From: a virus | Taxonomy: Duplodnaviria; Heunggongvirae; Uroviricota; Caudoviricetes | IMG/VR virus record: IMGVR_UViG_2563366852_000006 | Coordinates: 1-40,933 of that record | Length of the DNA: 40,933 nucleotides | Strand: one strand, 5' to 3' | Part shown: one piece after another, positions 9,933 to 10,747 of the stretch | How positions within the stretch are numbered: position 1 is the stretch's first letter | Layout: each line of letters opens with the position of its first letter | The notes under the pieces: generated by a model | Databases searched by the model: none | Told to the model about the DNA's origin: nothing | Seen by the model: the letters and a program-made list of their open reading frames with translations, nothing else | Position numbers and translations under genes: made by a program

Positions 9933-10747
9933 GTATGGAGCTGATGGTTAAAGCGATGAAAATTCGAGTGGGTAATCCATTGCGAAAACTGGTTCTGATC
10001 AAGCTGGCTGATAATGCCAGCGATCAGGGTGAGTGCTGGCCCAGCTACCAGCATATTGCTGACCAGTGCGAGATTAGCAAACGTTCTGTGATGAATCATA
10101 TTGCGGCCCTTTGTGAGTCCGGGCTGGTAAAAAAAGTCACCCGGAAAGGTGAAAAAGGTAACTCAAGTAATATCTATCTCCTTCATCTGGATGGTGCAGG
10201 AGATTCACTAGGGGGTAGTGCAAATAATTCACTATCTGGTGCAGCAAATTCACCAGGTAGTGCAGGAGTTGCACCAGGGGGTAGTGCAGGAGATTCACCC
10301 AGAACCAGTCACTCTTTTGAACCAGTCAAAGAACCAGTCAATGAACCAATAGCTGTTGGTGCATCAGTTGATGAGTCCGTGCGAGTTCGTTCAAACCGGC
10401 CGGAATACTCTCCGGAGTTTGAGCAGGCATGGCTGGCATATCCCAAACGTGCTGGTGGTAATTCAAAATCTGCAGCCTTCAAAGCCTGGAAAGCCCGTTT
10501 GAATGAGGGGGTAAACCCCGAAACCATGCTGGAAGGTGTGAAACGCTACGCGGGCTGGGTATCTGCGATGGGTAACAGCGGCACACAATTTGTGAAACAG
10601 GCTGTCACGTTCTTTGGTCCGGATCGTCATTTCGAAGAATCCTGGGAAGTTCCTGCGGTATCTGCAGCCAGACGTGAGGACCCGTACTTCAAAGCCAGTT
10701 ACGACAACGTGGACTACAGCCAGATCCCGGCAGGATTCAGGGGGTGA
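9929..10747 (+). CDS. Replication initiator (O-like) with N-terminal winged-helix domain
   Basis: N-terminal wHTH (LRKLVLIKLADNASDQGECWPSYQHIADQCEISKRSVMNHIAALCESGLV), a Gly/Ser/Ala-rich linker encoded by DNA repeats, then a conserved-looking C-terminal domain; the lambda O gene has the same layout. Confidence 0.6.
   Translation: MSMELMVKAMKIRVGNPLRKLVLIKLADNASDQGECWPSYQHIADQCEISKRSVMNHIAALCESGLVKKVTRKGEKGNSSNIYLLHLDGAGDSLGGSANNSLSGAANSPGSAGVAPGGSAGDSPRTSHSFEPVKEPVNEPIAVGASVDESVRVRSNRPEYSPEFEQAWLAYPKRAGGNSKSAAFKAWKARLNEGVNPETMLEGVKRYAGWVSAMGNSGTQFVKQAVTFFGPDRHFEESWEVPAVSAARREDPYFKASYDNVDYSQIPAGFRG
10190..10350 (+). repeat. Iteron-like direct repeats inside the initiator gene (candidate origin of replication)
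   Basis: GTGCAGGAGATTCAC twice, GGGGGTAGTGCA twice, and GAACCAGTCA three times plus a degenerate fourth copy (10300-10348). Confidence 0.5.

Follow-up and report, generated by a model that had tools for sequence, protein, structure and literature searches.

We analysed a window of 40,933 bp, the whole of IMG/VR virus record IMGVR_UViG_2563366852_000006 (Caudoviricetes), and found that positions 10194-10352, inside a phage replication initiator gene, probably form the replication origin of a lambdoid prophage. This putative origin combines an array of candidate iterons (initiator-binding direct repeats) with a core of short boxes, both of them within the part of the gene that encodes the linker of the initiator (Table 1). 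From the arrangement of the repeats and its comparison across homologues we infer that the initiator would bind, and the strands may open for replication, at this place.

Two distinct repeat sets were found in the interval. Set A consists of five dyad-symmetric 15-bp units of the pattern GTGCA-N5-T(T/G)CAC, with start-to-start spacings of 24/21/21/24 bp. Neither strand of the window has any other match to the pattern (0.34 expected from shuffles; none of 100 shuffled sequences reached six), and every unit is an imperfect inverted repeat except unit 4, which is perfect and matches both strands. Set B consists of three exact GAACCAGTCA boxes, with start spacings of 17 and 12 bp, and one degenerate copy; the count of three compares to 0.05 expected from shuffles and was reached in none of 100. 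Tandem Repeats Finder (TRF) reported a 12-bp array of 2.5 copies at 10319-10348. The preliminary description, made from the sequence alone, had placed short direct repeats at 10190-10350, and these counts bear it out in both place and content. Its three tandem copies correspond to the three exact boxes, which stand close together as direct repeats but are not strictly tandem.

To compare the repeats across lineages, we used 13 diverged homologues picked by protein similarity (tblastn), with N-domains 30-100% identical; an earlier scan of viral contigs with the initiator protein had returned near-identical loci only. All 13, from phages of E. coli, Salmonella, Klebsiella, Pectobacterium, Aeromonas, Vibrio and Aggregatibacter, carried 3-8 direct repeats of a 15-17-bp dyad unit right after the winged-helix domain, and the absence from homologous initiators that the preliminary description had allowed for was not observed. 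The unit reads GTGCA-N5-TKCAC in the window, cdtI, ST64B and AsXd-1, GTGAY-N5-TGTCAC in Vibrio D160, GGGGCAGGAGCTGCCCC in Stx2a_F403 and SI8, GGTGACAGAGAGTCAC in Vibrio 252E42.2, GTGTCACAGAGTCAC in mEp013, (A/G)TGCC-N7-GGCAC in S135, ZF40 and RAH1, and TATGCCAGCAGATAGCA in S1249. Despite this shared DNA architecture, the peptides that the repeats encode are unrelated (GSAGDSL, PVPPKST, MPADSTG, VTESHP). Spacing across lineages most often ends in 21, 21 and 24 bp; the majority of the 55 lineage types listed have a final spacing of 24 bp and a last unit that ends 3-4 nt ahead of AACCAGTCA.

Further lineages came from a search for the box pair in public viral and genome collections. Among 55 distinct combinations, the residues that start the predicted recognition helix track the half-site: SKRSVMNHI occurs with GTGCA, SERSVQNHI with GGTGCA, GRSTVK(V/L)HI with GGGGCA, SKSAV(R/K)xHI with TGCC-N7-GGCA, TRRSAI(N/S)HI with GTGAAA, SRKTAIGHI with GTGTAA and DKRTAMRHI with GTGAY. 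Over 123 distinct pairs, helix distance and site distance were correlated (Spearman 0.51). The partial correlation of helix with site was 0.48 given the rest of the N-domain, and that of the rest of the domain given the helix was -0.04; none of 2000 permutations in a Mantel test reached the observed value. The outer arms were complementary at 4-6 of 6 positions in 98 of the 123 pairs. Covariation of this kind is what is classically seen where a dimeric winged-helix protein binds type-specific iterons, and the dyad units are likely iterons because their sequence changes with the predicted recognition helix. The GAACCAGTCA copies, which the preliminary description had singled out, did not behave as type-specific iterons, as they stay constant while recognition helix and iterons change from lineage to lineage; the better iteron candidates are likely the five dyad-symmetric 15-mers at 10194-10298.

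Table 1 Features of the putative origin and of the initiator gene that contains it (positions in the window)
Feature	Position	Strand	Sequence or product	Remarks
Replication initiator gene	9929-10747	+	272 amino acids	N-terminal winged helix, disordered repeat-encoding linker, helical C-terminal domain
Winged-helix DNA-binding domain (predicted)	9929-10192	+	amino acids 1-88	AlphaFold2 predicted local distance difference test (pLDDT) 78-92
Least stable DNA of the gene	10150-10190			nearest-neighbour -1.13 kcal/mol per step over 30 bp; 33% guanine-cytosine (GC) content at 10160-10189
Putative iteron 1	10194-10208		GTGCAGGAGATTCAC	arms GTGCA and GTGAA (right arm as reverse complement) match at 4 of 5 positions
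Putative iteron 2	10218-10232		GTGCAAATAATTCAC	24 bp past iteron 1
Putative iteron 3	10239-10253		GTGCAGCAAATTCAC	21 bp past iteron 2
Putative iteron 4	10260-10274		GTGCAGGAGTTGCAC	perfect 5-bp inverted arms; 21 bp past iteron 3
Putative iteron 5	10284-10298		GTGCAGGAGATTCAC	24 bp past iteron 4; 3 nt before box 1
Family-wide conserved core	10299-10335		C-CAG-AACCAGTCA-(7 nt, pyrimidine-rich)-GAACCAGTCA-NN-GAACC	supported by codon identity, fixed gap and second frame
Box 1	10302-10311	+	GAACCAGTCA	exact copy
Box 2	10319-10328	+	GAACCAGTCA	exact copy
Box 3	10331-10340	+	GAACCAGTCA	exact copy; full third box peculiar to the window lineage, copy number varies
Box 4, degenerate	10343-10352	+	GAACCAATAG	direct reading of the sequence
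C-terminal helical domain	10400-10744	+	about amino acids 158-272	helices at amino acids 162-214; moderate AlphaFold2 confidence

Conservation and exchange at the box block

In 11 of the 13 homologues, the variable repeats are followed directly on their 3' side by nearly identical DNA, CAGAACCAGTCAC-TCTTTT-GAACCAGTCAA-nGAACC. We assessed this block by a codon test, in which codon pairs for the same amino acid that were able to differ synonymously were compared. Identical codons made up 95.3% of such pairs in the block (508/533) and 41.4% in the N-domain (1207/2915), and the first ten codons of the block were 100% identical, including the rare Arg codon AGA. The invariance tracks the boundaries of the boxes and not those of codons. 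Between box 2 and the next GAACC, the two bases differ without restriction and alter the amino acid; the 7-nt spacer is constant in length and always rich in pyrimidines, although its sequence changes, and the third GAACC is almost always present.

The same DNA is also read in other frames. In a second HTH_36 lineage (N-terminus MSRHATDWAW..., with a C-terminal Pfam DnaT domain), lambda-like iterons TCCC(A/G)AAAACGGGA are followed by CCAG-AACCAGTCA-tat-AACCAGTCA-ttt-AACCAAG, with boxes 12-13 bp apart that read Asn-Gln-Ser (NQS). The iterons of five viral contigs of this lineage (L320, L327, L334, L344, L348), ATCCCAAAAACGGGAT, are close to lambda ATCCCTCAAAACGAGGGA, and the protein lies outside Phage_rep_O. 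The mEp013 gene shares the NQS frame, and locus L362 has its first box in the NQS frame and its second in the EPV frame. Within a protein-search sample of 121 representatives of 50%-identity clusters (at least 200 amino acids, searched by N-domain), T-S-H-x-x-E-P-V was present in 64, and most of the others had a one-base variant (ESV, consistent with GAATCAGTC) or an alternative frame (SVTLLNQSMNQS). Six representatives (P0140, P0173, P0195, P0209, P0235, P0242) have the repeat and box region partly in a shifted frame, as in VVQEIHPEPITLEP or SVTLLNQSMNQS; these may be true genes with a compensated frame, pseudogenes of decaying prophages or errors of sequencing. Because synonymous sites are conserved and the boxes are read in other frames, we regard the block as a DNA element, and neither a peptide motif nor a type-specific initiator site; the peptide RTSHSFEPV was rejected on the same evidence as the reason for its conservation. 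Together with the covariation, synonymous sites and frames provide comparative evidence for selection on the DNA. The Gly/Ser/Ala-rich disordered linker would then be a tolerated by-product of origin DNA, much as the preliminary description had supposed.

The element was found in at least 119 viral contigs, about 95 genome contigs and 140 phage records, and in nearly every annotated one of the phage records the block lies within a gene annotated as encoding a replication protein. By title, nearly all of the genome contigs are from Gammaproteobacteria (Pseudomonas, Xenorhabdus, Photorhabdus, Haemophilus, Shewanella, Marinomonas, Vibrio and others); some 8 matches elsewhere are put down to chance. 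The plasmid database gave 15 matches, mostly in phage-sized records of 34-54 kb and in a few much larger replicons, and none of the 15 gave evidence of a minimal replicon. By eye, the box showed no convincing match to the IHF, Fis, DnaA or Chi consensus. Priming by DnaG at CTG is a speculative idea. A promoter, suggested by the TTGACT-like reverse complement of the boxes, was also considered and dropped, as there was no sigma-70 site.

Near-identical genes differ by whole units, with 1, 2, 5, 7, 8 or 9 iterons and with 2 (L173, L208, P0017), 3 or 4 (L153, P0018) boxes. The iteron counts were checked in the DNA for cdtI (8 units, an exact gain of 66 bp) and L112 (7 units), the other counts being inferred from protein sequences. 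The protein tolerates this variation in repeat number, as expected of a disordered linker. A near-identical gene from E. coli (P0040, 247 amino acids) has lost its last iteron unit together with the entire box block by an in-frame deletion (..GVAPGVGASADES..), and may be a natural origin-defective prophage allele. The comparison also showed that N-domain and iterons recombine independently of the C-domain, the block being where the two parts are joined: in P0062 and P0072 a C-domain of the window type is preceded by N-domains and iterons of other origin, and the N-domain and C-domain match different sets of phages. The downstream partner gene differs by lineage as well, with none in the window, a primase-helicase in F403, SI8 and S135, a P-like loader in RAH1 and S1249, and a DnaB-like helicase in ZF40.

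Interpretation as an origin and alternative explanations

As we picture it, N-terminal winged-helix dimers would bind the five 15-bp dyads, which lie about two helical turns apart, and iteron binding would assemble a complex similar to the lambda "O-some". The box block directly 3' of the last iteron would be a cis-acting element common to a very large group of Gammaproteobacterial phage replicons that differ in their iterons, in the frame in which the element is read, in C-terminal domain and in helicase partner. We suggest, with much lower confidence, that the box array acts as the origin core at which the duplex opens or the helicase enters. The AT-rich region of lambda and the 13-mers of oriC hold the same position in their origins as the box array does here. 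Since the boxes travel with varied iterons, two HTH_36 sublineages, and different C-domains and partners, their reader would be a conserved feature of the initiator scaffold or a host replication protein. More tentatively still, and with rather more doubt than belief, we propose that the array is a previously unrecognised, sequence-specific origin core of hundreds of Gammaproteobacterial phage replicons, with a variant in P22, which replaces or supplements the AT-rich region and has one common reader. Candidates for this reader are a replication protein of the host, confined to Gammaproteobacteria, and the conserved winged-helix scaffold of the initiator acting on single-stranded DNA. We found no published description of the box array, although many older subscription papers lay outside the search and a prior mention is possible.

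The stability of the duplex was examined for the site of opening. In a mean profile over 36 lineages that are less than 80% identical to each other, the minimum was centred some 25 bp inside the block (-1.27 kcal/mol per step), and a second dip lay 115-135 bp upstream, at the same relative position as 10150-10190. This tract of the window, the least stable DNA of the gene, is an alternative candidate site of strand opening. On the minus strand of this AT-rich tract, 5' of the iterons and still within the initiator gene, there is one terminator-like hairpin with a T-run (10137-10152); it is probably due to chance, as such hairpins were no more numerous than in shuffles.

Several observations weigh against an origin of this design. 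The AT-rich unwinding element that the preliminary description expected just downstream of the repeats was not evident: GC content at 10300-10369 is 40-43%, about 20% of all intervals in the sequence are less stable, and the more AT-rich tract lies on the opposite (5') side of the iterons from the boxes. An A-run follows the boxes in only 15 of 77 lineages. No DnaA box (TTWTNCACA) occurs within several kb of the gene, and no sigma-70 promoter was found at the boxes. Downstream of the initiator (10744-12594) there is no gene for a helicase, primase or helicase loader, which leaves helicase recruitment unexplained. Most loci used for the covariation and the boxes were found by the box pattern itself, so that the invariance of the boxes is partly circular there, the unbiased samples being the 13 tblastn homologues and the 121 representatives of the protein search. 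Finally, the literature searched contained no experimental binding, melting or origin mapping for this initiator family.

An alternative explanation is that the boxes are kept as a linker for homologous recombination, through which N-domain and iterons are swapped against C-domain or helicase modules, and have no role in initiation. The recombinants described above do join exactly at the block, the N- and C-domains match different phage sets, and one iteron type is found with different downstream sequences and vice versa. However, such a linker needs neither an array of two to four copies of one 9-10-mer at fixed spacing (17 bp here and 12-13 bp in the second lineage) nor a fixed distance of 3-4 nt from the last iteron; some 30 bp is marginal for RecA-type exchange, and a functional site that is conserved would be expected to become a point of exchange as a side effect. 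We therefore consider recombination unlikely as the reason for the boxes. That the GAACCAGTCA boxes are instead the true initiator-binding iterons, with the upstream dyads serving for example in autoregulation or copy-number control, appears quite improbable. They are direct repeats beside the initiator coding sequence, and the end of box 1, GTCAC, resembles the right half-site of several iteron types, but it is the dyads that covary with the recognition helix, whereas the boxes are invariant across differing helices and also accompany a distantly related HTH_36 N-domain and, as a variant, the Phage_rep_O protein of P22.

Two further explanations place the function outside the DNA. The block could act as RNA, for translational control or as a small RNA or RNase site in the initiator messenger RNA, with which a nucleotide constraint independent of frame is compatible. 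This seems very improbable, as the block matched nothing in Rfam beyond a chance microRNA match (E=0.076), its direct repeats lack hairpin potential, and the register is fixed to the last iteron, a feature of the DNA. The repeats could also have no DNA function at all and be slippage products of a low-complexity linker, or the conserved peptide RTSHSFEPV. Copy number does change by whole units, as by slippage or unequal crossing-over, the segment is disordered, and TSHxxEPV is common (64/121 representatives). Against this stand the dyad symmetry in each unit, a spacing that is conserved despite unrelated peptides, the covariation of unit and helix, the 95-100% conservation of synonymous sites and the two other frames used for the same DNA; frames and synonymous sites largely refute this explanation, which we find hardly credible. 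Overall, the spacing, register, covariation and frame evidence appears to disfavour all of these alternatives compared to an origin made of iterons and boxes.

If this origin is real, its interest lies in how widespread it would be. The replicon type is very common in E. coli genomes, in Shiga-toxin (Stx), cytolethal-distending-toxin and serotype-converting phages, and in prophages across the Gammaproteobacteria. The comparative data yield precise predicted binding sites and a "specificity code" that leads from recognition-helix residues to iteron half-sites. For the invariant 30-bp element, finding the reader would show how an origin that is not AT-rich is opened and how the host helicase is recruited by a phage that lacks a loader. 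As replication of Stx phages has been reported to be needed for effective toxin production (PMC7466680), the element could serve as a marker or target.

The initiator gene and its surroundings

By its domain matches, the gene encodes a phage replication initiator, as the preliminary description had called it, and one of the HTH_36 type. The protein matched Pfam HTH_36 (PF13730) at amino acids 17-67 (44.1 bits compared to a cut-off of 25, E 1.8e-11) and phrog_270, "replication initiation protein", at 1.7e-88. The label "O-like" holds for the layout, which is like that of lambda O, and not for the family: Phage_rep_O (PF04492) did not match the window protein, whereas lambda O (6e-36) and P22 gp18 (7e-38) did match. 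Rep_3 of Pfam did not match either, a match to DnaD_N was weak and below the cut-off (E 3.6e-5), and neither Pfam nor NCBIfam gave a significant match to a DnaT or DnaD C-domain. A sequence search of solved structures with the initiator found no relatives, and NCBIfam gave nothing meaningful. In the AlphaFold2 model, the N-terminal domain has helices at amino acids 3-11, 17-28, 40-47 and 51-64 and a wing of strands at 67-73 and 79-85; the helix at 51-64 (10079-10120) is the predicted recognition helix and residues 67-85 form the beta-hairpin wing. Foldseek matched it to winged-helix domains only, including DnaD-N (2v79) and the N-terminal domain (NTD) of staphylococcal plasmid RepA (RepA-NTD, 4pql/4pt7). 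The repeat sets encode the Gly/Ser/Ala/Pro-rich segment at amino acids 89-142, between the winged helix and the helices of the C-domain, and AlphaFold2 predicts disorder (pLDDT <50) for amino acids 91-157, which take in all repeat-encoded residues. The C-terminal domain, presumed to recruit the helicase or primosome, had PHROG matches (amino acids 145-272) to the families "DnaD-like helicase loader" and "primosomal protein".

Counterparts of the gene with 98-100% identity occur in SfV (orf39), mEp460, Ayreon, cdtI, and Stx2c and Stx2a phages, of which SfV, mEp460, Ayreon and cdtI are viable phages. Part of it is present in 2717 of 5426 complete E. coli genomes, and at least 80% of it in 897. 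In the window it stands in a lambdoid early-right operon, downstream of cII-like and Ash-like genes, and is followed by genes for a PerC-like protein (10744-11232), Dam methylase (11199-11885), a LexA-like protein (11882-12208) and RusA (12205-12594). The gene is 100% identical to that of Stx2c-converting phages. The window itself is not a segment of an Stx phage, there being no stx genes in the slot between Q and lysis genes nor elsewhere in 13-20.5 kb; ARAGORN found no tRNA genes in the whole window. Between the Q antiterminator (14423-14788) and the lysis genes, the slot that holds stx in Stx phages, two minus-strand genes at 14792-15376 and 15384-16406 match the PADLOC candidate defence pair PDC-M53B (1.8e-54) and PDC-M53A (2.1e-32). 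TRF reported two more short tandem repeats in the window, at 4473-4519 (23 bp x 2.0) and 18496-18548 (28 bp x 1.9).

Comparison with known systems

The initiator resembles the DnaD/DnaT primosomal and replisome organiser proteins in its weak DnaD_N match, in its Foldseek similarity to 2v79 and in the PHROG matches of its C-domain. A sister lineage carries a Pfam DnaT domain. The window protein differs from the DnaD/DnaT proteins in having no significant DnaT/DnaD C-domain match.

With the iteron plasmids (pSC101, F, R6K, RK2) and the 13-mers of oriC the window shares an initiator-binding repeat array, putative here, that adjoins short direct repeats, and with the iteron plasmids an initiator with a winged-helix domain. 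In these known systems the DNA opens at the short repeats, which are recognised sequence-specifically by Rep or DnaA. The short direct repeats that flank the iteron array in the window fit the oriC 13-mers and the lambda 11-mers in position and repeat structure, although they are not AT-rich. Unlike the dyads described here, the iterons of plasmids usually have no dyad symmetry of their own and are recognised by single Rep molecules. Plasmid origins also lie between genes and usually have DnaA boxes, none of which occur near the window repeats, and the window protein has no Rep_3 match.

The closest comparison is to the lambdoid phages, as the preliminary description proposed; it holds for the layout, for repeats at the junction of N- and C-domain and for type-specific dyads, and fails for the AT-rich tract and the O family. 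That lambdoid iterons lie inside their own initiator genes is already established, and the concept is an ordinary one: the iterons bound by the initiators O, gp18(P22) and gp18(L) differ, and each set lies in the coding region of its own initiator (PMC8022706, PMC7466680). The differences from lambda are the initiator family (Pfam HTH_36, not Phage_rep_O), the lack of a clear, strongly AT-rich tract beside the last iteron, where the window has the conserved GAACCAGTCA box array of about 40% GC, and the lack of a P-like loader or helicase gene after the initiator; moreover, the origin in the window is a prediction from sequence. The lambda origin has no box. The annotated P22 origin (L386 1841-1985) has a box with one mismatch, GAATCAGTCA, at about 1914-1923, right after the last iteron, and then a lambda-like A-rich tract and a CCCCCTTACCCCC..GGGGG palindrome. 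Similar palindromes, CCCCTTACCCC..GGGG, follow the boxes in many HTH_36 lineages. The annotated lambda iterons are 18-bp dyads spaced 20/24/23 bp apart, at the same position within gene O. Overall, the putative origin of the window shares with those of lambda, P22 gene 18 and phage L gene 18 its place inside the initiator gene at the junction of N- and C-domain and, with the lambda type in general, four to six dyad-symmetric repeats about 20-24 bp apart, an iteron sequence specific to the type of initiator, and an exchangeable C-domain.

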